Assembly (NCBI GenBank): GCA_011364905.1
Contig: RDNZ01000017.1
Coordinates: 1 to 53,238, forward strand
Source of the DNA: Candidatus Thorarchaeota archaeon
GTDB lineage: Archaea; Asgardarchaeota; Thorarchaeia; Thorarchaeales; Thorarchaeaceae
Length of the DNA stretch: 53,238 bases
Reading direction: 5' to 3'
Positions within the stretch are counted from its first letter, which is position 1; every line of letters begins with the position of its first letter. A model generated the notes under the pieces. The model ran no database searches. It saw only the letters and a list, made by a program, of their open reading frames with translations, and had not been told where the DNA came from. Position numbers and translations under genes: made by a program. Shown piece by piece: positions 11,112 through 48,913 of the stretch.

Positions 11112-11227
11112 TCACTTCAATCTCCCAGAGCCTAACAATATCTATTGAGTAAGGTTTGATATAACAGTTCCTCATATCCAAGAACTAAACCGGTTTACTT
11201 TTCCGGAAGCACACATTGTGATAATTC

Positions 11228-11950
11228 ATGACAGACGCGTGGAGCGAGATCATGCGGGATGCTGCAGATGGAGTGTCAGGACAGTACCTCATTGAGAGAG
11301 ACGACGGAAGAATCGAAACACTCGAAGTTGGCGATTACATCAAACCATTCGAAGAATGGGATGAGCCTGAACGTCAGGCAATCAAGCATGTTAAGGGGAG
11401 AGTACTTGACATAGGGTGTGGTGCTGGAAGGGTCGCAATCTACCTCCAGGTTCTTGGATACGAGGTTGTCGGCATTGATCTTGCGCCAGGAGCTGTAGAT
11501 GCAAGCAGGAGAATGGGGCTCAAAGAAGCCTATGTCATGTCTGCAAATGACTTGACTTTCTCAAACGACATCTTCGACACCGTAGTCATGTATGGGAATA
11601 ACTTCGGAGTCGCGGGAGAAGAAGAGCATGTCCTATCGATGCTACGCGCACTTCAAAAGATCACATCACCAAACGCGGTCATTCTTGCGGGAAGTGCAAA
11701 CGCAACAAACACTGAAGTTGAGGACCATCTGAAGTATCACCAGATGAACCGGGATAGGAACAGACCGCCAGGACTTGTACGAATCAGAGTGAAGTATAAG
11801 GACTATGTCACTGAGTGGTCAGACCTTTGGCTTGTCACCCTGGAGGAGTTGGAAGAACTGACTGAAAAGAGTGAGTGGCAAATAGATAAAATATACCAGA
11901 CCGGTAAGATTAACCAACCAGCATATGTTGCAGTTCTCTCGAAGAGGTGA
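11228..11950 (+). CDS. class I SAM-dependent methyltransferase
   Basis: VLDIGCGAGR, VVGID and FDTVVMYGNNFG. Confidence 0.93.
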   Translation: MTDAWSEIMRDAADGVSGQYLIERDDGRIETLEVGDYIKPFEEWDEPERQAIKHVKGRVLDIGCGAGRVAIYLQVLGYEVVGIDLAPGAVDASRRMGLKEAYVMSANDLTFSNDIFDTVVMYGNNFGVAGEEEHVLSMLRALQKITSPNAVILAGSANATNTEVEDHLKYHQMNRDRNRPPGLVRIRVKYKDYVTEWSDLWLVTLEELEELTEKSEWQIDKIYQTGKINQPAYVAVLSKR

Positions 11951-32316: not shown

Positions 32317-35300
32317 GTGACCGACGTCACATCATTTGCCAGAAGTGTCAGAATTGAAAAGAGCAAAGCATCGGCACTACTTCTTCTAGCTCTTCTCACT
32401 CTTCCATCGCTCATTGCTAGTGCGGCTCCAATAAACGACAATGCAACTCTAGGAACGTCAGAACTGATTCAAGAGTTACAACCAGCTCCCGATGAGTCGA
32501 TTGACAAAGAGGCAGTGATCGAACAAGCTCAATCGTTTATGAGAAGCCAGTTTACTGAGAATAAAGGACAGGTAGGAAATGACGAGGTCATGTTCTACGG
32601 AAATATACCAAATGGCATGATTGGTTTTGGTATCAGTAGGGTCTTCGTCTGGCTCGAAGGTTCAGATAGAAGCATGATTTTCGATTTCGTTGATTCCAAT
32701 CAAGTCGTTCCTAGTGGTGGTTGTGTAACATTTTCAAGATCGAATTACTTCCTTGGAGACCGTGGCACCTACACTGATATCAATTCCTTTACTGAAATTT
32801 GGTATCCCAATTTATGGTCTGGAATTGACCTTGTATATAGAGCTACACCTAATGGTGCAAAATATGAATATCATGTGGCTCCGGGAGCAGACCCTCAGAA
32901 CATAGCAGTAGATGTTCAGAATTATGATGAGTTACTTGTTTCAGACACATCCCTAATTGTCAAGACATCTGGTCTACCTTTCTTTGATAATGGTCTCATA
33001 GCTTTTCAAGACATGACTGAAGTAAAGGTAGGATTTGACCAGATTGGTTCATCAACATTTGGTTTCAGTATAGAGTCTTATGACAATAGCAAGTCCCTCA
33101 TAATTGACCCGCTCATTTACTCTACATATGTTGGTGGTGACTCTGAGGAGAACCCCCAAGATGTAGCCATTGATTCCACAGGCGCTGCATATGTTACCGG
33201 AAGTACACACTCTGAAGGCTTTCCAATGGTGAATCCGTTTGACGGAACATTTAGTGGTCCCTCTGGGGGTTCAGATATTTTTGTCTACAAATTGAATGCA
33301 GCTGGTAACGGGTTAATCTATTCCACCTACGTTGCTGGTAATGAATGGGAAACCGGGTGGGGAATTGAGGTTGATAGTTCAGGCTACGCATATGTTGCTG
33401 GCTTCACAAGGAGTGATGATTTTCCAACAGTCAATGCCTATGATAGCACATACGATTTTGGAATGGATTGTGTTGTTTTCAAACTAAATCAGACAGGAAA
33501 TGGATTGGAGTTTTCGACATATGTTGGCGGCAGTTGGTACTATGATGAAGCATATGATTTAGCTATTGACGCAACTGGAAATTCCTATGTGACGGGGTAT
33601 ACTCAATCAACTAATTTCCCAAGGGTGAATGCGTATGATAGCTCTCACAATGGAGGAGATGACTGTTTCATCTTCAAGTTGTCATCCACCGGTAGTACGA
33701 TGATATACTCAACTTTCTTTGGTGGATCAGGAGATGACAGAGGACGCTCGATAGATATTGATCAGTTTGGTAATGCCTATGTAACAGGTCAAACGACTTC
33801 ATCTGATTTACCTATAATCAACGGGATTGATGACACATATAGTGGTTCGACTGATTGTTTTGTGTTGAAGCTAAGTTCTGCAGGTAATGTTGTTGATTAT
33901 TCATCATATTTGGGCGGGACAGGTATTGACGAAGGATATGGGATTAGAGTTAAAGATGTCAATCAGACCTATATCACCGGAGGTACTACATCTGTTGATT
34001 TCCCTGCAACTGGTGGGTATGACTCGTCACATAATGGAGATCGAGATATTTTCCTGACATATCTCAATATTGCAGACAACACGATGCCCTACTCCACGTA
34101 TATCGGTGGGACCGGATATGAACGAGCAGATGCCCTCCACATAGATGACTATGGATCCGTCTATCTCGTAGGATTCACCTTATCCTCCGATTTCCCAATG
34201 ATTAATTCTTACGATGATACCTACGACGGAAACTCAGATGCCTTCGTTTTGAAGGTGAATAGTGCTGGAACAAGTATTCTCTATTCGACCTTCTTTGGTG
34301 GAGCTGATTATGACTATGGACGAGGGATTGCAGTAGACTCTGATGGATATGCATATGTCGTCGTAGACACTAATGGTGGGGTCCCTATTGTATCAGCGTA
34401 TGATGCAACCTATAACGGAGGAAGTGATCCTTGTTCTTTCAAGCTTGCAGATTTGGGAGATAGTGATTCTGACCTTTTGATAGACTATCTTGAAGTCATG
34501 AACGGAACTGACAGGTATAATCCAGACTCCGACTTCGATAAGGTGAAAGACGGACATGAGGTCATCCTCTATGGCACTGATCCTCTCAACGCGTCTGAGC
34601 CAACCTGGGCAAGTACAGTAGGTTACTCGACCTTAGTTGGAGGGTCAAGTGAGGACATCCCCACGGATATCACAGTGGATCACCTTGGAAACGTGTATGT
34701 GGTGGGTATAACACACTCAACTGATTTCCCCATGTACATGAGCTTTAATGATACCTATGCTGGGGCTTGGTATGACGCTTTTGTGTTCAAACTGTCTCCC
34801 GATGGGAGTAATCTAATCTTCTCAACATTCATTGGTGGTTCAGGCGAGGACTATGGACTTGCGATTGAAGTTGATGTACTTCAGAATGTCTATGTGACTG
34901 GTGTGACAGAATCATCTGATTTCCCAATTTTCAATGCGCTCTTTGACTCATACACCGATACTGACTGCTTTGTCCTCAAACTGAATCCATCAGGGGACAC
35001 ATTGATTTTCTCAACCTTTGTCGCAGGAGGAAATACAGATGAACCATGGGACATTTTTGTTGATTCCTCCTACAATGTATATGTTTCAGGAACTACTTAC
35101 TCTACTGACTTCCCGACGGTAAATGCCTATGATTCTGTATATGATGGCATTGGCTCTGAGTGTTTCGTATTCAAACTGAATAGCACTGGCAACGGTCTTT
35201 TTTACTCGACGTACTTTGGTGGAAATAGCACTGAAGAGGTTGGTGTACTTGCAGTAGACGAGTCCGGTTCTGTTTACCTTACAGGTATGACTGAATCAAA

Positions 35301-38300
35301 GGACCTCCCTTTGAAGAATCCTTTTGACAGCATCAATGAAGACCATGACCTCTTTCTCTGTAAACTCAACTCAACTGGAAATGGTCTGGAATTCTCGACC
35401 TACTTAGGTGGTAGTGGTTACGAGATCGTATGTAGCATTCAGTTAGATTCAGCTGGAGATATCTACATTTGCGGATCAGCTATGGCATCTGAATTTCCAT
35501 ATACCACCATGATTGGTAGTAGTGCCGACTCTGACGATATCTTCGTAATGAAGTTCAACTCGACTGGTAATGGATTGATTTTCTCAACAATCGTTGCAGG
35601 AACTGATTGGGATGAGCCTCTCAGTATGGAAATCGATTCCACTGGTGCTGCCTACGTAGCAAGTCCAACAGACTCCATCGATCTTCCTGTAGTGAATACA
35701 GATCTCTCGCCTCCCGGGAGTTATGATTCGTATGTCATGAAACTAAGCCCAGATGGCACTCACCTCGAGTTCTCTAGCTACATTGGAGGTTCAGGTATAG
35801 ACACTGATCCATACCTTGCTTTAGACTCATTTGGTAGGGTTTATGTCACTAGCTTAACAACATCCTCAGACATCCCCTTCGTCAATGAGTATGATGACAC
35901 ACCTAACGGTGGTGATGATGTCTTTGTCATTCGTCTTGACTGGTCCATCGATAGTGACTCAGATGGATTGCCTGATTTCTGGGAGGATGAGTTCGGTCTC
36001 AACTCATCAGACGCCAGCGATGCGTTAGAGAACTGGGATGCTGACGGCCTCACAAACATTGAGGAGTATCAGAACAGTTGTGATCCGACTGATGATGACA
36101 CAGACAATGACACACTTTCTGACAGTGATGAGGTCTATGTGTACGGAACCAATCCTACCAACAATGACACAGATTATGACCTCATGCCTGACAACTGGGA
36201 AATTCTAAATTCGTTGAATCCTCTTCTTGATGATTCAAGTGGTGATTTAGATGCTGACCAAATTTCAAACATTGTAGAGTATCAAATTGGGAGTGACCCT
36301 GATGACAGTGACACAGACAATGACCTGATGCCTGATGGTTGGGAGTATCAGAACAGTCTTGATGTCTTGGTTAATGATGCGGATGATGATGCAGACACTG
36401 ATGATGCCACCAATCTTCTTGAGTTCAACGCAGGGACAGATCCTAATGATCCTGACAGTGATGATGATCTTCTAACTGATGGACAAGAACTCAATACCTA
36501 TTCTACAGACCCACTAGATCCAGATTCAGACAATGACAACTTGACAGACTTCCAAGAGATCATCACTTATGGTACGAACCCATTAGTTGTAGACTCGGAT
36601 CTCGATAATCTGAGTGATGGTGACGAAGTCCTACTGTATTCAACCAATCCACTGGATGTAACTGATCCTGGTTGGAACGAAGCATTGACATACTCATCGT
36701 ATTTTGGAGGTAGTTCATCCGACAATGCTTGGGACATCGCTTTAGACTCTGCAGGTAACATCTATGTCGTGGGTTCTACCTACTCTTCAAACCTGCCATT
36801 AATGAACCAGTATGACGGAACCTTAGCAGGTACAACCGACTGCTTTGTTATGAAGATGGATCCCACAGGTTCTACTCTACTCTTCTCAACCTATATCGGC
36901 GGCGGCTCGTCTGAGAATGGGCGAGTAATCGAGGTAGACGAGTCTGGTAACGTATTTGTTTGTGGAGACACACAAAGTAGTGACTTTCCCACTGTTAGCG
37001 CATACCAGTCCTCTCATGCAGGTAGCTATGATCTTTTTGTTCTCAAACTTCACAGTTCTGGCAGTAGTTTGATTTACTCCACATATCTCGGAGGTAGTGA
37101 GCATGAACTTGAACCAGGAATGTGTATTGACAACGATGGTAACGCCTACATTGTTGGTAGAACTGGTTCATCTGACTTTCCGGTTTTCAATGGATATGAC
37201 ATGACCCACGATTCAATGTCTGATGGATTCCTCACAAAAATAAACGCCACGGGCAATGGTGTTTACTTCAGCACATTTGTTGGAACAAATGGAGATGATT
37301 TTGCTTCTGCAGTAGCAATTGATAGTGGTAGGAATATCTACGTTGCCGGTAGGACATCATCATATGTTGGATTCTCCACATCTGGGGCTTATGACGAAAT
37401 ACACAACGGTGGATATGATGCCTATGTCCTGAGAGTTGATTCTACAGGTTCTACTCTCGAATACTGCACTTACTTAGGTGGCGGACTGGGCGTTGGTTCT
37501 GGCACAGTTGAATATTATGAGTTTGCTGAGGACATCGCAGTCGACCTGAATGGTTCAGTATATGTTACGGGTTTTGCCAGGTCATACAACTTCCCGGTAG
37601 TCAATGGATTTCCCAAGCCTGAAAGTGGTGGCGATGATTGTTTTGTAGCTAAATTCAACCCGGACCTTAGTAGTCTCCTTTACTCTACATTCCTTGGCGG
37701 TCAAAGTGATGATCAGGGCTACTCAATCTTTGTTGATTCATTGGGTAATGCTTACGTGACCGGTTATACAGACTCACCCGAATTCCCAGTTAAGATTCCG
37801 TACGATGGTATTTTTGGAGGGTCATCGGACATCTTCGTTTCAAAGATTAATGCAACTGGGAACGGGCTTCACTTCTCTACTTTCATTGGTGGAAGTGATA
37901 CAGACAGAGCCTATGGGATTGCACTTAATGCAACTGGTTTTATCCACATTGCAGGCTATACCTACTCAACTGACTTTCCAAAGCTCAATCCATATGATGG
38001 TACTTATAGTCAAACTGAGTGCGCTATTGTCATTCTCGCTGACTTCAGCGATTCAGACTCAGATGGGCTCAGTGACTACAATGAAAGCCTCATTGGCACA
38101 GACCGTCTGAGTTGGGATAGTGACTCTGATTCGTTAAGTGATAAAGACGAATTGGATGTTTACCTGACTGATCCATTGAGTAATGACACTGACCTCGACC
38201 TGATGCCTGATGGCTGGGAGGTCGGACTCGGTCTAGATCCAAACTCAGATGACTCGATGGGAGATCTAGACACTGACGGTTTAGAGAACGTGTACGAGTT

Positions 38301-41300
38301 CCTATATGGTACATTGGCTGACAATAATGACACAGACTCTGATACACTACTCGACGGTTTGGAGGTCTACACCTATGGTACTGACCCACTCAGTGTTGAC
38401 ACAGACTCTGACATGTTGTTAGACCCAGACGAGATTTTCGTGTATGGAACTGATCCAACGACACCGTACAGTGATTCAGACATAATGCCCGATGGCTGGG
38501 AGATTCAACATGGACTCAATCCACTGGCTGATGACTCAGGTGGAGACCCTGACACAGACCTCTTGGTGAATGAAGATGAGTATATTTGGGGCACAGACCC
38601 TCAAAATCCGGATACAGATCTGGATTCATTCACCGATGGGTATGAAGTCCATACTCTTGGTTCGGACCCATTGGATCCACTCTCGCCTCTTAGTTCGAAA
38701 GAGCCAGAGTTTTCCACGTTCATTGGGGGAAGTAGTGATGACACCTTCTATGATGCCATTGTAGACTCTGAAGGCAACATCTACATCACTGGATACGTCA
38801 AATCATCCAATTTCCCGATTGTCGGAGCATATGACGGAACCTACAATGGAAACTGGGACACTGTCGTTGTTAAGTTGAACTCCACTGGAAATGGAGTAGT
38901 ATTCTCAACCTATATAGGCGGCTCCAACGATGAACGAGGTCTCGAGTTCTACATTGGCACGGACTTCTCGGTGTGGTTTACCGGATATACTGCGTCCTCG
39001 AACTTTCCAACGGTGAATGCCTACGATAGCACCTACAATGGAGGGTGGGACGGATTCATAGTTCATCTGAGTGCCAATGGCTCATCGCTCCTCTACTCGA
39101 CATTCATTGGAGGTAGTGGTGATGACCTGGCAGAGTTCATCACATTTGATGATGACGGGTATCTCTATCTATCAGGTTTCACGCGCTCCTCGAATTTCCC
39201 CGTGGTTAATGGTTATGATACCACATTCAATGGGGACCGTGATGCATTTGCCCTGAAGATGCAGCCAGATCTTCACGGCTTTGTCTTTTCGACATTCCTT
39301 GGTGGGTCTGGGTATGACTATACCTATGGTTCCCGAATTGCTGCAAATGGTGACTTCCTCATTGCTGGGGTCACTACATCGACTAACTTCCCCATGCTCA
39401 ATTCATTCGACTCAACCTACAACGGTGGTGACGACATATTCGTCACAAGGTTGAATGCCGCAGGTAACGCCCTCATTTTTTCAACCTACATCGGAGGTTC
39501 AGGAGAGGAATATTTCGGAAAATTCGATCTTGATCAACAAGAGAATCTCCTAATGGGAGGTTCAACAATGTCTTCGGACTTTCCGACTCGTAACGCCTAT
39601 GATTCCACGTTCAACGGGGGAAGAGACGCATTTGCCCTTAAGCTAGCCAGCAATGGTAGTGCTTTGTACTTCTCGACATACATCGGCGGAAGTGGAAGCG
39701 ATACAGTATATGGGGTCCAGGTTGACAGATGGAACAACATCCACCTCTCTGGTGTAACCACCTCCACTGACCTTCCGGTAAAGAACGCGTTCCAGAATGA
39801 GTCACAGGGCATGGATGACACCTTTGTGTTCAAGATAAATAGCACAGGGAACGGCCTGCTCTACTCGACATACCTAGGCGGTTCTGCTGATGATGGGCAA
39901 CGTGGTATGGCAATTGATAAGCTTGGTCGTGTCTATATAGTCGGATGGACGCAGTCTTCAGACCATCCAGTTGTAAACGCCTACGATGATACAATTAACA
40001 GCGTGTCTGATGGATTCATCACATGCTTCCGGCCCTTGGATGATGAAGACTCTGATGGTATACCAGACGATATCGAAATCTTGCTTGGCACAAACCGGTT
40101 TTCAAATGACTCTGATTCAGACTCGATGATTGATGGATGGGAATACTTCCACGGGCTTGATCCGCTTGTCAACGATTCATATCTCGACCTTGATTCTGAT
40201 TCACTGTTGAACATAGAGGAGTACGCTCTAGGCACGTTTCCAGAAACCAATGACACAGATTCGGATATGATGCCAGACGCCTATGAAGTGTTCTATGGTC
40301 TGAATCCATGGGTGAATGATGCTTCTACCAGCCTCGACAATGACTCGTTGTCAAACTTATTGGAATATCAACTTGGTACCTTGCCGAATTATTGGGACTC
40401 TGACTACGACCTGATGCCTGATGATTTCGAGTACTGGTATGGACTTGATCCTCTAGTGGATGATGCTGATGGTGATTTAGACTCAGACACTTTGACCAAT
40501 CTAGAGGAGTTCTATATTGGAACATTTCCGAATAACATTGACTCTGATTACGACCTGATGCCAGACGGATGGGAGGTTGATAATGGCCTACTCCCATGGT
40601 TTGATGATGGCGGGGATGATCACGATGGTGACGATTTGACTAATTATGAGGAGTTCGTCCTAGGTACAGACCCACAAGATAGCGACTCCGACTCCGATTT
40701 GATGCCAGATGGGTGGGAGTACTCCTATGGTCTCGATCCGTTGGTGAATGATGCAGGACTTGATGGTGATTCCGATGGCCTGTCAAACCTCGGTGAATAC
40801 AATGCACAAACTGACCCGACTAATTCTGATTCCGACTCTGACCTCATGCCAGATGGTTGGGAGGTCTCCAATGGTCTTAATCCGATAGCTGATGACGCGA
40901 GTAATGATCCAGATTCAGACACCTTAACGAACCTTGAAGAATATCTCAATGGAACTGATCCCCTCAGCTCAGATAGCGATTCTGACACAATGCCTGATGG
41001 ATGGGAGCTTGACAATGGTCTAAATCCTCTACTCGATGATGGTGATGCGGATGCAGATTCTGACGAACTATCAAATGCCCTGGAGTATGAGTACGGAACA
41101 GATCCTCAGGTTGCTGATAGTGACTCTGACAATTTGATTGATGGTCAAGAGATTACCTATGGCACCGACCCCCTCATCGACGATACGGATATCGATATGC
41201 TACTTGATGGAGACGAAGTCCATCAATACGGAACCGACCCAACATTGTACGACACGGACCATGATACATTATCGGATGGTGAAGAAGTATTGATTTATGG

Positions 41301-43986
41301 AACAAACCCGCTTCTAGCGGACAGTGACTTTGATGGTTTATCAGACTCTCAGGAGATTGCCATGGGCCTTAACCCGATGATCAACAACTTCGTCGCGAAT
41401 GCAGGCATCATTATCGCAGTTGTAGCAATCATCGTAGTGGTGATTGTTTACTGGAGGAAGGTCCGCATTCCTCAGCAGAAGGCAAAGAAGCGACAGATGG
41501 TTGAGCTTTTCATCGAGAACAGCAGGGAACGAGGGGAGGTCGATGACTATTATATTGAGGAGAACTCGCCCTTGTGGTATGTTGGGACCATCTTTGCATC
41601 TTACAAGAAGAAAGGAGGCAAACAGAGAGATCCCGCTCCGGTCCTTGAACACTTAGTGACCAACGAATTCCCAGGAAGCTTTGAACAGGGAGCAGAGAAG
41701 ACGCTGATGGGCATGTGCCTTGAACTTGCTGCACATCAGGAGTTCTCATTCCTCTCATGGCTGAGTGCAGCTATCACCAAGAAGATGGCGGCTGGGCAGT
41801 TCTCGTTGAAACTGAAAGATAATGACTTCAGAATGAAATGTTGGCAGGTGGCACAGTTAGGAACTCCTGCTTGGAGGTCACGTGGACTAACAAATGAAGA
41901 TAGGGCAAAACTGTCAAACATCATTACAGAGCTGCAGAGTAAAAAGGATCTCCAAGACGAGTTCATCCCCTATGTCGCTCAAGTGTTGATGGTCTCATGG
42001 GACAGCTCAGCAATGTCTCGCTCGTGGATTGCGGATCTGTTCAAACCAATGTCATTTGAATACAAGTTTGAATTCCTAATGCAGTTTCGTAAGGTCGGTG
42101 GGACCTATGAGAAGATGTTGTTGCTTGATGGCATACTGAGCGGAATCAAACTCAAGGAGCTCTTAGATAAACCTGAGGAGGAGTGGGAGAAGATAATCTC
42201 CGAAATTGTAGGAGCCGGATACGCCAGTAGACCAATTCCTTTTGACACAGATGACATTGCTGGGTTCCCCTTTGAGAAACGCTTCAGCATGGCTTCTGTG
42301 ATCCAGAAGAACAAGACAGACCTCAAGAACGAAGAGAGCTTCTCTAAACTCCTCTTTGTTGACGCAAAGGACCACAAGAAGTTCTATGACTACGAGATTC
42401 CTCAGGGCATCCTAACGCATAGTATGAACATGCTGAAGAGCCGTGTCCGTGAAACTCCTGCCTACATCAGCATCAATCGTGTTGGCATACTGAGCGTGCT
42501 TCGTGAATACCAAGATAAGCGGATAGATTTGGAAACGATGATGTCGTTTGTGAATAATGTTCCAGAAAGTATTCAGGATAAGATTCATGCCAATCCTGGC
42601 ACACGTGGAGCCTTCAGATATGCAATTAGTACAGTCATCATCGAGAAAGTCAGGAAAAGCGACTTCGATTCAGTAGCGCCGCTTTTGAAGATCTATCGCG
42701 AACCGTTTGATCTTGTTCTCAACTTTGTGGAAAAGACGATTAATCAGACTCTTGTGGCTCATGGCAATGACAAGAATCTGCAGCAGTTCTTACTCACACT
42801 ACAGGCTGAACTCCTAGAGTCTGGTTCTGACAAGAAGAGTGTCAGGAAGATTGTAGATTGGTTGAAGCTTTGGAGTCTGATCTATGAAACGACAAAAGGT
42901 GCAAAGCAACATCATGGATATGTGGCTGGTTTACTCGACGTGGTTAAGGAAACAAAGGGATCTTTTGAACCCAGAGCGATAACCGAACAAGTCCTGACTA
43001 TCATAAATGACGAGTTTGAAAGAACCGTCAGAATATTCAGAGGTACTCCGCGACTAGACAACCTGACATATCGAACTAGAACTGATGCAGCCAAGGCATG
43101 GATGGAATCAGTAAAACATGCGTACTACAAACTCCTACTGATGGCCGATAATAGCGGACTCGAACTCTCCGATGATGACCGGGACCATATGAGAAAGGTT
43201 GCGCACGAGATTCTAGGATTCGTCATAAGGGTCAGGAGAGAGGACTTCCTTGAGAGAATGGAGCATTTCCCGATAGACATTGGTGATGTCATAGACCCAG
43301 GGCATCTGCTAAAGAGTAGCATTGAGAAGTCCCATTTCGTCCTTCTTCCCGAATCGTTCCACACCTTTCCATTACCTGCACTGATAGTGCTGAACGAGTT
43401 TCTTAGGAATCCCATCAGACTGCCATTTGTCGGAAACAAGCAGCAAGGAGTTCTGATTAACCCGATGTTCTGGGTGTTTGGGGCCTCAATTAGCCTGGCT
43501 CTTATACCGACCATGGTGATGGCTGAGCAAACATACAGCAATTATTTCATCGGGGAGTACCTAAAGACTGCTGCATTGGCGGTGAAGCAGGCAGAAGAAC
43601 CCATTGGAAAACTGCTCATCAAGGTTGACCCCAACCTGACAGCTGAGAATATGATTGTGAAGTCATTCAAGCAGCTTATGGATTTGCATTACCTACAAGG
43701 AGTCATAACGAGAGAGATGGTTATTGTTGCCCTCGAGTTTGGAGGTTGGAATACTGCTCTTGCGGACAAGATCATCGAGGAGAAAGACTACTGTGTATAC
43801 TGCTCGTTCGAGCTGCCAAAAGACGCTGAAACATGCCCCAACTGCGGAAAGCCCGTCGTGGTGCTTGATGTGTCAGCCATCACGCCGGATGAAGTACAAG
43901 TAGACCTCTCTGAACTTGGTCTCGATATGGCCGAAGGCGGTCCAACCGAGCCTAGACCTGGTGGCGGAGGTTTGGAGGTGGAATAA
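32317..43986 (+). CDS. giant (3889 aa) surface/receptor-like protein: signal peptide, four SBBP beta-propeller modules, D-x-D-x-DG Ca-binding repeat tracts, TM helix, ~840-aa C-terminal region with zinc ribbon
   Basis: FTENKGQ N-domain. Repeated YSTY.GGS..D....IA.D..G..YV.G.T.S.DFP blades. DSD.D.MPDGWE...GL.P repeats. TM AGIIIAVVAIIVVVIVYW at 41401-41454. CVYC/CPNC near the end. GTG start after GAGGTGGAG. Confidence 0.9.
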   Translation: MTDVTSFARSVRIEKSKASALLLLALLTLPSLIASAAPINDNATLGTSELIQELQPAPDESIDKEAVIEQAQSFMRSQFTENKGQVGNDEVMFYGNIPNGMIGFGISRVFVWLEGSDRSMIFDFVDSNQVVPSGGCVTFSRSNYFLGDRGTYTDINSFTEIWYPNLWSGIDLVYRATPNGAKYEYHVAPGADPQNIAVDVQNYDELLVSDTSLIVKTSGLPFFDNGLIAFQDMTEVKVGFDQIGSSTFGFSIESYDNSKSLIIDPLIYSTYVGGDSEENPQDVAIDSTGAAYVTGSTHSEGFPMVNPFDGTFSGPSGGSDIFVYKLNAAGNGLIYSTYVAGNEWETGWGIEVDSSGYAYVAGFTRSDDFPTVNAYDSTYDFGMDCVVFKLNQTGNGLEFSTYVGGSWYYDEAYDLAIDATGNSYVTGYTQSTNFPRVNAYDSSHNGGDDCFIFKLSSTGSTMIYSTFFGGSGDDRGRSIDIDQFGNAYVTGQTTSSDLPIINGIDDTYSGSTDCFVLKLSSAGNVVDYSSYLGGTGIDEGYGIRVKDVNQTYITGGTTSVDFPATGGYDSSHNGDRDIFLTYLNIADNTMPYSTYIGGTGYERADALHIDDYGSVYLVGFTLSSDFPMINSYDDTYDGNSDAFVLKVNSAGTSILYSTFFGGADYDYGRGIAVDSDGYAYVVVDTNGGVPIVSAYDATYNGGSDPCSFKLADLGDSDSDLLIDYLEVMNGTDRYNPDSDFDKVKDGHEVILYGTDPLNASEPTWASTVGYSTLVGGSSEDIPTDITVDHLGNVYVVGITHSTDFPMYMSFNDTYAGAWYDAFVFKLSPDGSNLIFSTFIGGSGEDYGLAIEVDVLQNVYVTGVTESSDFPIFNALFDSYTDTDCFVLKLNPSGDTLIFSTFVAGGNTDEPWDIFVDSSYNVYVSGTTYSTDFPTVNAYDSVYDGIGSECFVFKLNSTGNGLFYSTYFGGNSTEEVGVLAVDESGSVYLTGMTESKDLPLKNPFDSINEDHDLFLCKLNSTGNGLEFSTYLGGSGYEIVCSIQLDSAGDIYICGSAMASEFPYTTMIGSSADSDDIFVMKFNSTGNGLIFSTIVAGTDWDEPLSMEIDSTGAAYVASPTDSIDLPVVNTDLSPPGSYDSYVMKLSPDGTHLEFSSYIGGSGIDTDPYLALDSFGRVYVTSLTTSSDIPFVNEYDDTPNGGDDVFVIRLDWSIDSDSDGLPDFWEDEFGLNSSDASDALENWDADGLTNIEEYQNSCDPTDDDTDNDTLSDSDEVYVYGTNPTNNDTDYDLMPDNWEILNSLNPLLDDSSGDLDADQISNIVEYQIGSDPDDSDTDNDLMPDGWEYQNSLDVLVNDADDDADTDDATNLLEFNAGTDPNDPDSDDDLLTDGQELNTYSTDPLDPDSDNDNLTDFQEIITYGTNPLVVDSDLDNLSDGDEVLLYSTNPLDVTDPGWNEALTYSSYFGGSSSDNAWDIALDSAGNIYVVGSTYSSNLPLMNQYDGTLAGTTDCFVMKMDPTGSTLLFSTYIGGGSSENGRVIEVDESGNVFVCGDTQSSDFPTVSAYQSSHAGSYDLFVLKLHSSGSSLIYSTYLGGSEHELEPGMCIDNDGNAYIVGRTGSSDFPVFNGYDMTHDSMSDGFLTKINATGNGVYFSTFVGTNGDDFASAVAIDSGRNIYVAGRTSSYVGFSTSGAYDEIHNGGYDAYVLRVDSTGSTLEYCTYLGGGLGVGSGTVEYYEFAEDIAVDLNGSVYVTGFARSYNFPVVNGFPKPESGGDDCFVAKFNPDLSSLLYSTFLGGQSDDQGYSIFVDSLGNAYVTGYTDSPEFPVKIPYDGIFGGSSDIFVSKINATGNGLHFSTFIGGSDTDRAYGIALNATGFIHIAGYTYSTDFPKLNPYDGTYSQTECAIVILADFSDSDSDGLSDYNESLIGTDRLSWDSDSDSLSDKDELDVYLTDPLSNDTDLDLMPDGWEVGLGLDPNSDDSMGDLDTDGLENVYEFLYGTLADNNDTDSDTLLDGLEVYTYGTDPLSVDTDSDMLLDPDEIFVYGTDPTTPYSDSDIMPDGWEIQHGLNPLADDSGGDPDTDLLVNEDEYIWGTDPQNPDTDLDSFTDGYEVHTLGSDPLDPLSPLSSKEPEFSTFIGGSSDDTFYDAIVDSEGNIYITGYVKSSNFPIVGAYDGTYNGNWDTVVVKLNSTGNGVVFSTYIGGSNDERGLEFYIGTDFSVWFTGYTASSNFPTVNAYDSTYNGGWDGFIVHLSANGSSLLYSTFIGGSGDDLAEFITFDDDGYLYLSGFTRSSNFPVVNGYDTTFNGDRDAFALKMQPDLHGFVFSTFLGGSGYDYTYGSRIAANGDFLIAGVTTSTNFPMLNSFDSTYNGGDDIFVTRLNAAGNALIFSTYIGGSGEEYFGKFDLDQQENLLMGGSTMSSDFPTRNAYDSTFNGGRDAFALKLASNGSALYFSTYIGGSGSDTVYGVQVDRWNNIHLSGVTTSTDLPVKNAFQNESQGMDDTFVFKINSTGNGLLYSTYLGGSADDGQRGMAIDKLGRVYIVGWTQSSDHPVVNAYDDTINSVSDGFITCFRPLDDEDSDGIPDDIEILLGTNRFSNDSDSDSMIDGWEYFHGLDPLVNDSYLDLDSDSLLNIEEYALGTFPETNDTDSDMMPDAYEVFYGLNPWVNDASTSLDNDSLSNLLEYQLGTLPNYWDSDYDLMPDDFEYWYGLDPLVDDADGDLDSDTLTNLEEFYIGTFPNNIDSDYDLMPDGWEVDNGLLPWFDDGGDDHDGDDLTNYEEFVLGTDPQDSDSDSDLMPDGWEYSYGLDPLVNDAGLDGDSDGLSNLGEYNAQTDPTNSDSDSDLMPDGWEVSNGLNPIADDASNDPDSDTLTNLEEYLNGTDPLSSDSDSDTMPDGWELDNGLNPLLDDGDADADSDELSNALEYEYGTDPQVADSDSDNLIDGQEITYGTDPLIDDTDIDMLLDGDEVHQYGTDPTLYDTDHDTLSDGEEVLIYGTNPLLADSDFDGLSDSQEIAMGLNPMINNFVANAGIIIAVVAIIVVVIVYWRKVRIPQQKAKKRQMVELFIENSRERGEVDDYYIEENSPLWYVGTIFASYKKKGGKQRDPAPVLEHLVTNEFPGSFEQGAEKTLMGMCLELAAHQEFSFLSWLSAAITKKMAAGQFSLKLKDNDFRMKCWQVAQLGTPAWRSRGLTNEDRAKLSNIITELQSKKDLQDEFIPYVAQVLMVSWDSSAMSRSWIADLFKPMSFEYKFEFLMQFRKVGGTYEKMLLLDGILSGIKLKELLDKPEEEWEKIISEIVGAGYASRPIPFDTDDIAGFPFEKRFSMASVIQKNKTDLKNEESFSKLLFVDAKDHKKFYDYEIPQGILTHSMNMLKSRVRETPAYISINRVGILSVLREYQDKRIDLETMMSFVNNVPESIQDKIHANPGTRGAFRYAISTVIIEKVRKSDFDSVAPLLKIYREPFDLVLNFVEKTINQTLVAHGNDKNLQQFLLTLQAELLESGSDKKSVRKIVDWLKLWSLIYETTKGAKQHHGYVAGLLDVVKETKGSFEPRAITEQVLTIINDEFERTVRIFRGTPRLDNLTYRTRTDAAKAWMESVKHAYYKLLLMADNSGLELSDDDRDHMRKVAHEILGFVIRVRREDFLERMEHFPIDIGDVIDPGHLLKSSIEKSHFVLLPESFHTFPLPALIVLNEFLRNPIRLPFVGNKQQGVLINPMFWVFGASISLALIPTMVMAEQTYSNYFIGEYLKTAALAVKQAEEPIGKLLIKVDPNLTAENMIVKSFKQLMDLHYLQGVITREMVIVALEFGGWNTALADKIIEEKDYCVYCSFELPKDAETCPNCGKPVVVLDVSAITPDEVQVDLSELGLDMAEGGPTEPRPGGGGLEVE

Positions 43987-43989
43987 CAT

Positions 43990-44691
43990 ATGATGAATTT
44001 AAAGTTAGAAGATTTCGGTCTGTTGCATCCGATTTACCCTAAAGGAACTATGAAATTCAAAGGAACAGGTTTGATGACAGCAAAGACATTGAAGCTATGT
44101 CCTAACTGTTTGTTGCCAGGAAACATCATGGAGCACTTTGGCCCATTTGTCGTCGGAATGTGGAGAGTGACCATCCCCATTTCCACCCATAGGGAATGTA
44201 GTTCTGGCTGGTCAAATAGGAACATTTCAGGAAGTACACGGGTTTGGGCCGAATCAGGGTATCCCGGATACATATGTTTTGACTTCAAGAATCCAGTCTA
44301 TGCAATGCTCTTTTCAAGAATCAACTTTCAGGCTTTGTTTGATGGCGGAGGTCGACCACTGACTGCAAGATACGATGATGAACTTGCAAGACTTAGAAGG
44401 GTCCAGAGAGAACGCCAAAACAAGTTGGGAACATGTCCAAGGTGTAAAAATGACCTCTATGAGGAAGCAGATTCGTGTCCCTCTTGCGGGCTCAGTAGGA
44501 AAACGTCATGGGTGAGAATGACGCCAAGACCGAGTGAAGAAGTAACAGAGTCAATGGAGAGCTTAGAAGTTGTTGTCAAATGCGCCGAGTGCGGAACACT
44601 GATGCTCAAAGAACCAAAGTTGAAAAACTGCGGAAAGTGTGGAAGCCCACTCAAGGACCAGGAATCAAAAGAGGAAACGGAAACCGCATAG
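43990..44691 (+). CDS. multi-zinc-ribbon protein, probably co-transcribed with the giant gene
   Basis: CPNC/HREC, CPRC-CPSC and CAEC-CGKC; starts 3 nt after the giant gene stop. Confidence 0.8.
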   Translation: MMNLKLEDFGLLHPIYPKGTMKFKGTGLMTAKTLKLCPNCLLPGNIMEHFGPFVVGMWRVTIPISTHRECSSGWSNRNISGSTRVWAESGYPGYICFDFKNPVYAMLFSRINFQALFDGGGRPLTARYDDELARLRRVQRERQNKLGTCPRCKNDLYEEADSCPSCGLSRKTSWVRMTPRPSEEVTESMESLEVVVKCAECGTLMLKEPKLKNCGKCGSPLKDQESKEETETA

Positions 44692-44698
44692 AACCAAC

Positions 44699-45616
44699 TC
44701 ATTGTTCAAAAAACTCAATCTCAATTGGTTGGTTCCTAATGACATAGTACTGTTTGAGTTTGAGCTTGACAGAACTATTGGTTTCTCTCTGACTGTCATA
44801 ATAGGCAAACAGGCGGACCGCACAATTGTACCCAGCAGAGATACCTATGTATCCACTATCAAGTGTCAGGTTTACAGGTTGGGATACGACATCAATTGGG
44901 GCCCATCCGATTTGAGGATCATAGACCTCAGCCCATGAATGCATCTTCCATGAACGACGATGCCGCTGTAGACCCACCATTGCTCTAGAGGGGATGTTAT
45001 TGTTTCTAGCTAGAGCTAGGAAGAGATGAACAAAGTCGCTACATGTGCCTCGTCGAGACCTCAGGGTTTCAAGTGCGCCTCTGTAGTTTTTGTCCTGCAA
45101 ATCGTAGCTATAAACGATGTATGTATTCACCCATTGCGCAATTGCGCGGACAGCAGACCAAAAGCTTTGGTCCTCATTTACAATCTCGCTAGCCAATTGG
45201 CTGATCTCATCAGCACCGGTCTCAATATAGTCATGCGATTCCAGATAGTCCGCGATATCAGGAATTTCTTTTAAAATTTCAGGGAGGTCAGCAATACTGG
45301 TAGCATCACTAATCCTGTATGGATTGCGCCTTTCGAAATCTATGTTCAAGATAATATTTGCACTTGCTTGTTTAGTGCGCGGATCAAATGCTTGATGATT
45401 GATTTCGAGGTTGTATAATGTCGACCATCTCTCATGAGTCACCTTGAAGGGATGGTTTATGCCAATTAGCTCAATCTTTTGGCGTGGGTCAGATGAAGGG
45501 CACTTAAGAAAAACACGGAGCGTGTCGAAATCTCCATCAACATGATTCAGCATTGTATGAATGATGACCATGTTATTCCAACGAGGTATTGACACGCAGG
45601 TTAACTCTCCGAACAA
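44699..45616 (-). CDS. transglutaminase-like cysteine protease/ligase
   Basis: GTCSDFVHLFLALAR..NIPSR, HSWAEVY and GWAPID (Cys-His-Asp triad). Start is TTG 45616 or ATG 45571. Confidence 0.92.
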   Translation of the reverse strand: MFGELTCVSIPRWNNMVIIHTMLNHVDGDFDTLRVFLKCPSSDPRQKIELIGINHPFKVTHERWSTLYNLEINHQAFDPRTKQASANIILNIDFERRNPYRISDATSIADLPEILKEIPDIADYLESHDYIETGADEISQLASEIVNEDQSFWSAVRAIAQWVNTYIVYSYDLQDKNYRGALETLRSRRGTCSDFVHLFLALARNNNIPSRAMVGLQRHRRSWKMHSWAEVYDPQIGWAPIDVVSQPVNLTLDSGYIGISAGYNCAVRLFAYYDSQRETNSSVKLKLKQYYVIRNQPIEIEFFEQ

Positions 45617-45671: not shown

Positions 45672-47033
45672 TTATTCATCGTCGTCTTCGATATCTTCCT
45701 CTTCTGAATACTCGAGTTCTTCGTCTTCGTGCTCAGTCTGATCCTCATCAACAGTATCATCTTCCCCGGAAACTTCAGCTTCATCCTCGGCTTCAACCTC
45801 GTCGGGCTCTTCCTCCTCTTCCTCTGGCGCTTCAACATCAGCGGATCTTGGAGCCTCCTTTACAAGGAAGTCTCTATACATGGTGGCTCTCGGGAAGTAC
45901 TCAACAATCGTACGATAGAGGCCTCTACTGTCTGACGCAAGCACAAGTAGGTTAACATCTTTCGGTCGTTTTCCGAAGAATCCAGGCTTTTTCCTTTTCA
46001 CATAGACCTCAATTATTTTGATGATTGTGGGATACCCGTAATCGCTGTAGTCTTGTTCGTGTCGAATCTTGACATCAATCCGAGATATGGTGTCCCATTC
46101 TACAAGATTTGCCGACAGATGTGACATCGTTTCATGCCAAATGTAGAGAATTCCATCGGGTTTTATGGCGAAGGTTGTCGGAACCAAGACATCTTCCAAC
46201 TGGAAATTCTGTCTAACGGTTTCAAGCTGCCGTCTCCAATCAAGTGCCAAATCCTTAGAGTATGTTGGCCGAGTATCCATCTTCGATAGTAGCTCCTCCA
46301 GGTAGTCAACTTTCATCATCATGGTATTGAGCTTGAACTCATTCTCTTCCATCGGGATGAATGCGTTTATCAATTCGGTGTCACCAATCTCCCTTGCTGA
46401 TTCAGAAGACTGCAGAACACGACGGAACTCGTTGAGGAACTCCATCTCGACAGAATTGCTCACATCAGGTTGCAACGTTGAAACTTCGATTTCAGTGAAC
46501 TCCTCTTTTTCAAAAGACTTTGTTTCTGAGGACTCTGCGTCTGAATCATCATTGAGATCTTCACTTTCAACTAAGGTAGATGTTCTTTTCAGGATTCCAT
46601 TGAATCCCTTAACCGCATTGTTGATGGGATCCACGACGATACCAAGGAATTCCGGAGAGAGTCGGGTCAAGTCTCTGAAGCTCCTGAAGTCTGTCCCCGA
46701 AAAGAAGACTCCAAGACCAGGATGGGTATGAATCCAAGCCCCCGATCTGAAGTTGTACAACTCTTTCTTGTCTGAGGTAAGCCGAATAATCTGCTTTGTC
46801 ACAAGTGGGAACACTTCTTTTCTAAACTCACAGTAGGCACCGGATTGGATCTTCTGCGGTGGCAGGACAATACCTCTTACATGAAAGGTATCGCCTTCCT
46901 GAAATCCAACGCAAACACCGCCCCATTCTGATGCGCCATACAGTTTCGTATAGACTCGGAATTGCTCATATACAGATTCATCAATGGTTACACGTTGAGG
47001 AATCTCCGGTTGATCATAGTTTGATGTAATTAT
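45672..47033 (-). CDS. JAMM/MPN+ metallo-isopeptidase (Rpn11/AMSH-like) with coiled-coil, PH-like region and acidic tail; N-terminus extends beyond the ORF-track start
   Basis: WIHTHPGLGVFFSGTD (H-x-H-x7-S-x2-D) and GIVVDP. The frame stays open upstream of 46814 to 47054, encoding RVTIDESVY...SEWGGVCVG (catalytic Glu). The start is uncertain (ATA 47033, ATT 47030, CTG 47045 or ATA 47054). Confidence 0.88.
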   Translation of the reverse strand: MITSNYDQPEIPQRVTIDESVYEQFRVYTKLYGASEWGGVCVGFQEGDTFHVRGIVLPPQKIQSGAYCEFRKEVFPLVTKQIIRLTSDKKELYNFRSGAWIHTHPGLGVFFSGTDFRSFRDLTRLSPEFLGIVVDPINNAVKGFNGILKRTSTLVESEDLNDDSDAESSETKSFEKEEFTEIEVSTLQPDVSNSVEMEFLNEFRRVLQSSESAREIGDTELINAFIPMEENEFKLNTMMMKVDYLEELLSKMDTRPTYSKDLALDWRRQLETVRQNFQLEDVLVPTTFAIKPDGILYIWHETMSHLSANLVEWDTISRIDVKIRHEQDYSDYGYPTIIKIIEVYVKRKKPGFFGKRPKDVNLLVLASDSRGLYRTIVEYFPRATMYRDFLVKEAPRSADVEAPEEEEEEPDEVEAEDEAEVSGEDDTVDEDQTEHEDEELEYSEEEDIEDDDE

Positions 47034-47038
47034 AGGGT

Positions 47039-47043
47039 CCTCC
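47039..47043 (-). promoter_or_regulatory. Shine-Dalgarno-like GGAGG ahead of the candidate non-canonical JAMM start
   Basis: Minus strand reads GGAGG-ACCCT-ATA-ATT in the JAMM frame. Confidence 0.5.
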
Positions 47044-47050
47044 AGTTTTG

Positions 47051-48913
47051 CTATTCAGTGGGGAAGAATTCGAATGTGCTCTCTTCGGGTGGAAGATTGA
47101 GATGCTGAGGACAAGAATCTTTCATCTTGTGCCTGCAGTCCTTTCCAGCCTCACACTTCGCCAGCATCTGATAGCGCGGATAGTATTGCACGAAGTGTGT
47201 GACCTCAACATCTAGCTTTGAGAGACTGGCAACTGCAATAGCTGTCTGCATTGCGCCAATGGTCCCAATTGTAGACACAATTGAGGGAATTGGAATCTTG
47301 CCTGTACAACTGACGACCTCTCTCTGTTCCTTAGTTTCCTCCCCATACCGACATACGTAGCAGTCTGCATCAGGCATGAACAAGTCAACTTTCCCCTCGA
47401 ACCTCTCTGCTCCAGCACTGATGACCGGTATCTTCAGAAGCTTACCTAGGAGAGTCGAAACGTAACGCGTTCTTATGTTATCAGGTCCGCATATGAGGAG
47501 GTCCGATTGCGAAAGGGAATGCGCCAAAACTGATTCCTCTCGGAGGATGTCAAGTGGAATCTCGATACCATCTATGACCTGAGTCTTGCCCACGCCCTCA
47601 CTCTTCTTTTTCTCATACTCGTCCAAAGGCATAAAGTCCTTCATGACAATGGCATTTGCGGTTCCTATTTCAGTTTGCCAGGGCAAAGATACTACCTTGT
47701 TTGTGGGATTGATTTCGAGAAGTTTTTTCCGTGCAGCAATTGCTTTAGGTTTGCCTATTGAGTCTCGGTTGAAAAGGATTTGACGATTGAGATTATGCTC
47801 CTCCACCTCGGCATCATGATCGTTGAGAACAAGTGTGCAGTTCTCTGTGTTTGAAACACTGAATAAAGCAGTACTCCACGAACCAATGCCTCCCACTCCG
47901 AGGAAGTACACCGTCTTGTCAGTGAGCGATGTCGGTATTTTCACATCTCTGTCCTTGATGTATATCATATCCTCTCTCTGTTCGACTTTGGTTTCTGCTA
48001 ATGGAGAGAATAGAAGCGAAATAGTTGGTCTGAACATGTCGGGAGGGACATCATCTAGAATCTCTATCTGGTCTGTCAGCATTCGTGTGAGATAAGAGCC
48101 ACTAGGGAAGCCACACTTCAGTATAATTCGATCCGGATCCACTTCGACTGTTTCTTCTACTTTCCCCCCAACATAGCGCGTAGTTGTGGTGGTGAACTCC
48201 TCTATTTGCGTGTTTAGTATTTCCCCACCAATTTTCATCCTGACCTTGAAAGGTAGACTTTCTCGTTTTTTCTGCGAGTCCCTGACTTTCTGCAGGATTC
48301 CCCGTTGCTGAATCACACATCTCAGATTCAAGTCCCTCTGAAGTAGCTCCGATGGACGGATCAGCATATTTCGCCGCATGATTTCCGTCACAGCAAACCC
48401 AGCAGCCACTGCAGCCAAAGATGGAGTGAGGACATCAAACTCATGAGGTTCGATGACTGCTTGTCGAGTACCCATATAGGCTGCAGTCTTAGAACAGACA
48501 GCCCAAATTGGAGCTTCAGTTTCTGGCAGAATGAGAGAGTTAGTAGGGTCGCTGTTTGCACTTCCGGTTGCCACAACAGCATCATAGTTGTATGAATCAA
48601 GATCATCAATCCCGATTACAGCGATGTCCGATGCAATCTCACTCTTCACATGATCTCTGATTGCTTCCCAAAGTGGCCGTCCAACATCCTCTTTTTTCAA
48701 GAGGAGCTGACCTTTCACATCTTCCTCTCTGACTTTACGTTTCTTATAAAAGCCAATGAATCCTTGGGACGTTCCAAATCCAAGAAATGCAAGGTGTGTG
48801 ACCAAATAGCTGATCACTGGACCGGACCCCCCAATGAAAACTCGCATGTCCTCGATTCGTTCTTGGTACACCAGACCGACTTGTCGGTCAACACGCTCTG
48901 AGTATTTCACCAT
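47051..48913 (-). CDS. E1-like ubiquitin-activating enzyme with tandem ThiF/MoeB domains (degenerate N-terminal, active C-terminal)
   Basis: N-domain RVDRQ...RVFIGGSG...LAFLGFG. C-domain FLGVGGIGS, DHDAEVEEHNLNRQILF, GKPKA, PDNIRTR, CYVC, VSC and a C-terminal Cys/His cluster. ATG 48913 follows GAGGAG. Confidence 0.92.
   Translation of the reverse strand: MVKYSERVDRQVGLVYQERIEDMRVFIGGSGPVISYLVTHLAFLGFGTSQGFIGFYKKRKVREEDVKGQLLLKKEDVGRPLWEAIRDHVKSEIASDIAVIGIDDLDSYNYDAVVATGSANSDPTNSLILPETEAPIWAVCSKTAAYMGTRQAVIEPHEFDVLTPSLAAVAAGFAVTEIMRRNMLIRPSELLQRDLNLRCVIQQRGILQKVRDSQKKRESLPFKVRMKIGGEILNTQIEEFTTTTTRYVGGKVEETVEVDPDRIILKCGFPSGSYLTRMLTDQIEILDDVPPDMFRPTISLLFSPLAETKVEQREDMIYIKDRDVKIPTSLTDKTVYFLGVGGIGSWSTALFSVSNTENCTLVLNDHDAEVEEHNLNRQILFNRDSIGKPKAIAARKKLLEINPTNKVVSLPWQTEIGTANAIVMKDFMPLDEYEKKKSEGVGKTQVIDGIEIPLDILREESVLAHSLSQSDLLICGPDNIRTRYVSTLLGKLLKIPVISAGAERFEGKVDLFMPDADCYVCRYGEETKEQREVVSCTGKIPIPSIVSTIGTIGAMQTAIAVASLSKLDVEVTHFVQYYPRYQMLAKCEAGKDCRHKMKDSCPQHLNLPPEESTFEFFPTE

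Follow-up and report, generated by a model that had tools for sequence, protein, structure and literature searches.

Introduction

Does an archaeon encode, in one polypeptide, the pair of inactive and active adenylation domains on which the canonical ubiquitin-activating enzymes (E1s) are built, and how might such an arrangement have come about? The question is raised by a gene on contig RDNZ01000017.1 of the Candidatus Thorarchaeota archaeon assembly GCA_011364905.1, of which a stretch of 53,238 nt (positions 1 to 53,238, here called the window) was analysed. Canonical E1s are defined by an asymmetric pseudodimer, and to our knowledge an inactive-active pseudodimer was thought to be a eukaryotic invention until the bacterial protein BilD was solved in 2023-24. 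A reading made from the DNA letters alone (the original prediction) had described the product of this gene as a single-chain pseudodimeric E1 resembling eukaryotic UBA1. In this study, we revisited this proposal using profile searches, structure prediction, gene neighbourhoods and phylogenetic trees. We consider it likely that the gene encodes the E1 of a self-contained tagging operon, comprising a ubiquitin-like modifier (Ubl), an E2-like protein, the E1 and a JAB peptidase, and that its single 620-aa chain folds as a pseudodimer of the ThiF/MoeB type.

Results

Two ThiF-like halves with complementary motifs

Residues are numbered from the ATG at 48913; conservation was read from a 27-sequence alignment and checked across phyla on 15 sequences and on distant loci. 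The presence of two ThiF-like repeats, as originally claimed, is confirmed by an hhalign comparison of the N-terminal part (residues 1-195) with the C-terminal part (321-620), which gave a probability of 94.4% (E 9.1e-8) and aligned N18-94 with C328-403. In addition, phmmer searches with the N part matched the C domains of homologues, and Pfam ThiF is found on both halves. The N part alone matches at E 1.5e-5 (48611-48886, model positions 8-94); when the protein is scored as a whole, PF00899 reaches 122 bits against a curated cut-off of 28.1, and by half only the C half exceeds the cut-off, the N half remaining below it with 24.9 bits.

All of the motifs that had been listed are present and conserved, and the loss of complementary motifs from the two halves holds in every family member examined, from Asgard archaea to Streptomyces. 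In the N half, R10 and Q11 of the R-x-x-R-Q motif and the nearby G13, L14 and Q17 are each at least 90% conserved in the 27 sequences; the 15 sequences aligned across phyla show no exception at R, Q, G and Q, which are also present in all distant loci. The P-loop of this half is degenerate (GGSGPV at 29-34; TGEGAI, NGTNLI and others elsewhere in the family), with KKRK at the DxD position and VKGQ at the NLxRQ position. In the C half, the glycines G339, G341, G342 and G344 are invariant, as are D367 of the DHD sequence at 365-367, E371 and H373-N-L-N-R-Q378 of EEHNLNRQ (371-378), K390, and D478 and R483 of DN..TR (478-483), and an RxxRQ sequence is absent before the glycine loop. RxxRQ and the ATP motifs therefore lie on separate halves, so that the protein is not of the single-domain ThiF/MoeB kind. 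When run against the PDB, the C-domain profile matched ThiF (E 1.2e-24) and MoeB (4.7e-23) ahead of the active adenylation domains (AADs) of canonical E1s (~1e-16 to 1e-17).

The candidate catalytic cysteine had been placed on the right codon and, as Cys536, is invariant. It aligns with the region of ThiF Cys184 and MoeB Cys187, and the S-C-(T/Q) loop that carries it is kept in bacterial and other archaeal members. CYVC is the first half of a probable structural zinc site, with C601/H604 (CPxH) as its probable partner; a C..H pair near the C-terminus is conserved in distant family members. The motif in the C-terminal tail could serve as a docking peptide for the E2-like or the JAB protein. An insertion of ~50 aa, with two helices and a hairpin, lies between the fourth strand and DN..TR (residues ~412-476, 47486-47680); ThiF and MoeB do not have it, and it holds no cysteine.

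Table 1. Positions of the E1, its parts and the genes clustered with it (window coordinates)
Feature	Position	Strand	Remarks
E1 coding sequence	47051..48913	-	620 aa + stop; ATG at 48913; Pfam ThiF E 2.8e-35
N-terminal domain, residues 1-195	48329..48913	-	degenerate ThiF Rossmann fold; pLDDT 85-97 in the model
RVDRQ motif, residues 7-11	48881..48895	-	R10-Q11, candidate arginine finger for the C-domain ATP site
Middle region, residues 196-320 (125 aa)	47954..48328	-	mostly beta in the model; long hairpin 234-268
C-terminal domain, residues 321-600	47114..47953	-	full ATP motif set; best PDB profile matches ThiF/MoeB
Glycine loop GVGGIG (ATP-binding), residues 339-344	47882..47899	-	aligned to GxGxxG of ThiF/MoeB
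CYVC, residues 518-521	47351..47362	-	C518 invariant, C521 nearly so; aligned to CxxC of ThiF/MoeB
Cys536 (VSC), candidate catalytic cysteine	47306..47308 (codon)	-	invariant; short crossover loop
C-terminal tail, residues 601-620	47054..47113	-	Asgard-conserved motif CP.HLNLP..ENPF.FF
Candidate ubiquitin-like modifier, 79 aa	49442..49681	-	C-terminus ...IAGG-A; presumed E1 substrate
E2-like protein, 129 aa	48988..49377	-	invariant H73-x-N75 and Cys93 in the family alignment
JAB/JAMM peptidase, long C-terminal extension	45672..47030	-	weak Pfam JAB and Prok-JAB matches; H-T-H..S..D motif
Transglutaminase-like protein, last gene of cluster	44699..45616	-	Pfam Transglut_core E 3.1e-24

Predicted structure

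An AlphaFold2 model built from the 27-sequence alignment had a mean predicted local distance difference test score (pLDDT) of 87.8 and a predicted template modelling score (pTM) of 0.89, and the loop 532-539, which bears Cys536, was the only internal stretch with a pLDDT below 50. The model was used for a Foldseek search, in which UBA7, UBA1 and UBA6 were the top matches over ~690 columns, and the matches were re-aligned with VIA-align. After re-alignment, the top structural match was BilD (8tyz_A; Z 29.6, root mean square deviation (rmsd) 3.1 Å over 389 residues, model residues 4-618), and UBA1, UBA6 and UBA7 were matched with Z 25.5-27.0 and rmsd 2.8-3.6 Å over 391-424 residues, covering most of ~2-620. 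The single-domain proteins ThiF and MoeB gave Z ~25 and rmsd 1.9-3.1 Å over 205-222 residues, from model residues ~62-67 to 597-617. One rigid superposition spans both halves, and therefore the predicted placement of the N domain on the C domain is that of an inactive adenylation domain (IAD) on an AAD; in this position the N domain is predicted to fill the C-domain face through which ThiF and MoeB homodimerise. Based on the model, an intramolecular pseudodimer of inactive and active adenylation domains is a high-confidence prediction, and the original description of a single-chain pseudodimer agrees with this superposition of both halves on UBA1/UBA6/UBA7 and on BilD.

The comparison with the architecture of UBA1, in contrast, stood for the two adenylation domains but not for the remaining domains. 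Only about 24 residues, Cys536 among them, separate C521 from the helix starting at 546, which leaves no room for a CYS/SCCH domain, and the chain ends 34 residues past the last AAD strand, which is too short for a UFD of ~90 aa. Pfam searches of the E1 gave no match to PF10585 (SCCH) or PF09358 (UFD), whereas the eukaryotic E1s recovered in our searches match PF10585 at 1e-61.

The middle region

The insert between the halves, previously given as ~140 aa and beta-rich, is indeed mostly beta in the model but is shorter (Table 1). A middle region of 82-127 aa is present in all family members. Folded alone from the family alignment, it gave a pLDDT of 83 and a pTM of 0.55, and when this model was compared by VIA-align with 48,161 PDB chains the best Z was 2.8 and none reached 5; it is probably not an independent domain, as judged from these models. 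Pfam E1_FCCH and E1_4HB gave no match in the E1, although the middle region may be a remote relative of these domains. FCCH, 4HB, SCCH and UFD are all readily detected by Pfam in the eukaryotic E1s that were recovered with a profile of the N domain and middle region (the N+M profile, described below).

It had also been suggested that the insert could recruit the E2. Prediction of an E1-E2 complex gave a score of 0.60 ('weak support') against 0.00 for the best control, with no interface reported; at least 79% of contacts were common to the runs, and the partner had a pLDDT of at least 79. In the calibration of this score, the mark was reached by 58 of the 80 solved complexes and by 2 of the 110 mismatched pairs, and at scores of 0.60 or lower there were 7 of the 80 solved complexes and both mismatched pairs. 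A role of the middle region in the reaction may be inferred, as may one for the C-terminal tail.

The gene cluster

The minus-strand open reading frame (ORF) of the E1 is open from 48961 (TTG) to 47051. A start at the methionine encoded at 48913 (MVKYSERVDRQ) is common to ~40 Asgard homologues of 600-630 aa, and therefore 47051-48913 is likely to be the coding sequence. On the same strand, the E1 gene is the third of a cluster that reads, 5' to 3', 79-aa Ubl candidate, 129-aa E2-like protein, E1, JAB/JAMM peptidase and transglutaminase-like protein. Homologues of the Ubl are found upstream of the E2 and E1 genes in the Asgard loci L001, L005 and L042, and its sequence neighbours in a protein atlas, which serve as leads only, are clusters with ThiS, TmoB or YukD minorities. 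The 129-aa protein is a candidate E2-like protein on the basis of its invariant H73-x-N75/C93, its conserved linkage and atlas leads to prokaryotic E2 families.

The JAB reading frame is open from just past the E1 stop (47028-47057) and contains no ATG, GTG or TTG before 46814; E-W-G-G is present in the open frame upstream of the JAB ORF. In the 85%-identical locus L001, an ATG stands at the codon aligned with an ATT of the window (47030-47028), with GGAGG 9 nt upstream. As far as can be judged from the sequence, the JAB gene probably starts at this ATT or else has lost its start codon.

The transglutaminase-like gene is conserved only in the close relative L001 (7961-8893). On the opposite strand, a 3889-aa ORF (32317-43986, plus strand) ends ~700 bp short of the transglutaminase stop (44699), where the cluster has its 3' end, and a 233-aa double zinc-ribbon protein (43990-44691) is encoded between the two. 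A Pfam scan of the window revealed no rhodanese or sulfur-transfer partner beside the E1. The host genome is 81% complete and has one other ThiF-family gene, which is of the standard ThiF/MoeB type and lies on contig C56.

Distribution of the family

The N+M profile was made from the 15-sequence cross-phylum alignment and run against 1.84 billion representatives; 31 clusters matched with an E-value of 1e-30 or better and 51 with 1e-10 or better. Members of this rare and distinct prokaryotic lineage occur in Asgard archaea, other archaea and several bacterial phyla. Its ~40 Asgard homologues come from metagenome-assembled genomes (MAGs) of Thor-, Hod-, Hel-, Loki- and Heimdallarchaeota. Full-length relatives in other archaea are found in Thermoprotei and in MAGs of Poseidoniales (marine group II, MGII), Methanosarcinales and Thermoplasmatota, and those in bacteria belong to Pirellulaceae, Aminicenantes, Gemmatimonadetes and the cultured actinomycetes Allorhizocola rhizosphaerae and several Streptomyces strains. 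An N-terminal R-x-x-R-Q-x-G-L-x-x-Q is kept in all non-Asgard full-length relatives, and the pattern of motifs over the N and C halves holds in members from Thermoprotei, Pirellulaceae, Aminicenantes, Streptomyces and Poseidoniales. Of 301 Asgard genomes sampled, 4 gave a full N+M match, as did 1 of the 24 further genomes that belong to the same genus. This patchy occurrence indicates that the operon is sporadic, like accessory or conflict systems.

Among the 33 loci with enough flanking sequence, E2-like and JAB genes adjoin the two-domain E1 gene in most, the E2-like gene being its neighbour in almost every locus, in the order E2-E1-JAB in Asgard archaea and E1-E2-JAB in bacteria. Some bacterial operons (L003:7458-11854; L048:2031-5078; L007:7607-10653) have two tandem E2-like genes, and some appear to hold two JAB-like genes after the E1, doublings that recall the pairs Ubc13/Mms2 and Rpn11/Rpn8, although the doubled ORFs partly overlap in the high-GC Streptomyces loci, where some may be spurious. 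In marine Poseidoniales, two paralogous genes for two-domain E1s lie within a few kb of each other, with the N domain shortened in both (L012:5962-7545 and 9753-11324; also L068-L073 and L081).

The N-domain profile also finds ORFs of ~330-430 aa, one at G018:C32:9969-10256 and others in 23 further Asgard genomes, but only with its Rossmann half (E 1e-11 to 1e-13); going by these matches they are probably ordinary Asgard E1-like proteins, and the window's own genome has no ORF of that kind. Naturally split, heterodimeric forms were also considered, but the short matches concerned (P0093 and P0094) look like fragmented genes rather than natural IAD-only subunits, being located next to other ThiF fragments or on a contig of 980 bp. 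Searches of the phage and plasmid collections turned up no two-domain relative. A literature search returned no description of the two-domain family; most subscription journals are outside its coverage, and an earlier description may exist.

Discussion

Proposed mechanism

The sequence duplication, the division of motifs between the halves and the conserved gene linkage described above suggest how this E1 might work. The Ubl ends in a single alanine after its glycines, which implies maturation, and the JAB peptidase would first trim this residue, presumably in the way that BilC matures BilA (PMC10557695). The C-terminal domain would then bind ATP-Mg and adenylate the C-terminal glycine of the 79-aa Ubl. 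The N-terminal domain, having lost nucleotide binding, would occupy the dimer interface. In MoeB, NAE1-UBA3 and Uba1, the equivalent arginine reaches the ATP site; by analogy, R10 of the R-x-x-R-Q motif would reach the ATP site of the C domain in cis. Cys536, on its short and flexible crossover loop, would form a thioester with the Ubl, which would then be handed on to Cys93 of the E2-like protein. We infer both the arginine finger and the thioester relay from the conservation of these residues and from their counterparts in related enzymes.

Several findings weigh against this proposal. All structural claims, including the two-domain architecture, rest on prediction. The Ubl is recognised by sequence in the Asgard loci only, and the E2-like protein gave no match in Pfam (18 members), in the PDB profile search, in NCBIfam or in PADLOC. 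With a JAB gene that has no canonical start, the operon may be partly impaired in this genome. Furthermore, the sequence is compatible with chemistry of the sulfur-carrier type, as the C domain sides with ThiF/MoeB-like proteins in a tree of Rossmann cores (support 90/89).

Origin of the two-domain chain

The relation to eukaryotic E1s was examined in this Rossmann-core tree (87 rows x 95 columns, in which the IADs are long branches) and in a quick search on full AADs (49 rows x 243 columns). BilD was left out, since type I BilD was too divergent to align (E ~1e-4 over 60 residues). In the core tree, the N domains (100/99), the C domains (99/94), the eukaryotic IADs (100/100) and the eukaryotic AADs (90/76) are separate groups, and the backbone is open. 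Approximately unbiased (AU) tests reject none of the constrained groupings, neither N domains with eukaryotic IADs (p 0.40), nor C domains with eukaryotic AADs (p 0.19), nor N with C domains as one clade (p 0.29), the last of which costs 8.9 log-likelihood units. The original prediction had allowed for either a relative or a convergent analogue of the canonical eukaryotic E1, and the tests reject neither a shared nor an independent duplication.

We lean slightly towards the view that the two halves were joined independently of both eukaryotes and BilD, through internal duplication or the fusion of two ThiF-type genes, in which case the Uba1-like architecture would be convergent. The four domain classes each form their own well-supported clade, type I BilD lacks an N-terminal RxxRQ and is far removed in sequence, and the accessory parts differ, with the middle region in place of FCCH/4HB, a short Cys loop and no UFD. 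However, the AU test does not favour an N + C clade, and the alignable core of just 95 columns with its long IAD branches also counts against this view. As regards eukaryotes in particular, an independent fusion is on balance favoured because the accessory parts differ, the distribution is sporadic and crosses domains of life, and no pairing of like with like domains is supported.

Common ancestry of the IAD-AAD duplication with that of canonical eukaryotic E1s, with the family as a simpler, pre-eukaryotic stage before the CYS domain and UFD were added, seems to us unlikely, even though a number of observations point in this direction. The two domains follow one another in the same order as in UBA1/UBA6, on which both halves superpose, and a clade of N domains and eukaryotic IADs is not rejected by the AU test. 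The best matches of the N+M profile outside the family are eukaryotic canonical E1s of ~1000 aa (E ~5e-12), ahead of the far more numerous ThiF/MoeB proteins; however, these matches fall on the start of the active domain and not on the IAD. An insertion of 3-5 residues after LGxG is common to the N domain and eukaryotic AADs, and is missing from the C domain, ThiF and eukaryotic IADs. The C domains join the eukaryotic AADs in the quick full-AAD tree (Shimodaira-Hasegawa-like approximate likelihood ratio test (SH-aLRT) 81), which is at odds with the core tree, where they stand beside ThiF/MoeB-like proteins. It also speaks against shared ancestry that SAE1 and NAE1 chains are not among the PDB matches listed (the best 60 of 64 at E up to 0.001), that neither a CYS domain nor a UFD would fit into the chain and Pfam detected no FCCH, and that the scattered Asgard occurrence, together with the bacterial members, fits lateral spread better than vertical descent.

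Somewhat less probable still, in our opinion, is the more specific idea that a prokaryotic relative of the ancestor from which canonical eukaryotic E1s descend has survived in this family, with a fusion that predates eukaryotes, the CYS domain and the UFD, and with Asgard copies that mark the lineage through which it passed; if this were true, the preference of the N domain for eukaryotic AADs and the shared loop insertion would be traces of kinship. Two prokaryotic ThiF-family proteins of ~400 aa (P0156 and P0199) group with eukaryotic E1 active domains (SH-aLRT 95, quick tree) and share the LGxG insertion, and among prokaryotic proteins these may be more closely related to canonical E1s than the two-domain family is.

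That the protein is instead a ThiF/MoeB-like sulfur-carrier adenylyltransferase rather than a conjugation E1, with the N domain as a mere scaffold or with an enzyme that also homodimerises, we consider very improbable: the best C-domain matches are to ThiF and MoeB (E 1e-24 and 5e-23), its Cys is at the position of ThiF Cys184 on a short loop, and the BilD complex itself is 2:2:2 (PMC10557695), but the linkage to a JAB protein and to an E2-like protein with an invariant Cys is conserved across phyla, the Pfam scan of the window shows no sulfur-transfer partner beside the E1, a canonical ThiF/MoeB gene exists separately on contig C56, and in the model the N domain occupies the face through which the C domain would form the canonical dimer.

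On the predicted architecture, the family is a second prokaryotic lineage with the inactive-active layout, unrelated to BilD in sequence, and in a more minimal form with a ThiF-like Cys loop and no CYS domain or UFD. It offers a simple system in which to study what an inactive domain contributes, be it an arginine finger or an asymmetry for the hand-off to E2, by what means the E2 is recruited when the E1 has no UFD, and how often this architecture arose. Experiments are within reach through the members from cultured Streptomyces and Allorhizocola strains. The sporadic distribution of the family speaks against a core role in eukaryogenesis.

Comparison with known E1 systems

The original prediction had stated that most prokaryotic E1s are single-domain, which overlooks BilD. 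BilD of Ensifer aridi (type II) is a solved IAD-AAD-CYS single chain (PDB 8TYZ/8TZ0) from the bacterial BilABCD antiphage operons, where its complex forms 2:2:2 assemblies (PMC10557695). Like the Asgard protein, BilD has IAD and AAD in one chain, and its gene stands in an operon with those for a Ubl, an E2 and a JAB protein and with none for an E3. However, the two differ in several respects. In BilD, the crossover loop contains a mobile alpha-helical CYS domain (~80 aa), whereas in the Asgard E1 this loop is short and itself bears the Cys; the Asgard family has its middle region, which BilD (~450-500 aa) does not; and the gene order is Ubl-E2-E1-JAB in the Asgard cluster and Ubl-E2-JAB-E1 in Bil operons. 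At the sequence level, the PADLOC BilD profile (PDLC03847) matches only residues 343-412 of the Asgard protein (profile positions 203-274 of 453, E 4.5e-6), whereas for a genuine BilD the match extends over profile positions 3-439 (E 5e-126), and the PADLOC library, which includes Bil profiles, gave no family for the E2-like or the JAB protein. Type I BilD is matched by a hidden Markov model of the C domain over the short segment mentioned above, and by that of the N domain not at all.

With UBA1/UBA6/UBA7, NAE1-UBA3 and SAE1-UBA2, the Asgard E1 shares the IAD-AAD pseudodimer in the same order, here in a predicted structure, and as in canonical eukaryotic E1s the R-x-x-R-Q helix is retained in the inactive half. 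It is, however, much shorter than the ~1000 aa of a canonical eukaryotic E1, with an AAD nearer in sequence to ThiF/MoeB. Its candidate catalytic Cys is on a short loop, whereas that of canonical E1s and of BilD is on the CYS/SCCH domain (PMC10557695, PMC11601596).

The C-domain motifs, the CxxC zinc half-site and the Cys on a short crossover loop are shared with ThiF/MoeB and with minimal E1s such as UBA5. ThiF and MoeB have one domain and receive the Arg in trans from an identical subunit, whereas the Asgard E1 carries the Arg helix and the ATP site on non-identical halves of one chain, and it is accompanied by an E2 and a JAB protein in place of sulfur-transfer enzymes. BilD is the existing prokaryotic precedent for such a chain, and the Asgard family differs from both BilD and UBA1 in the defined ways set out here.

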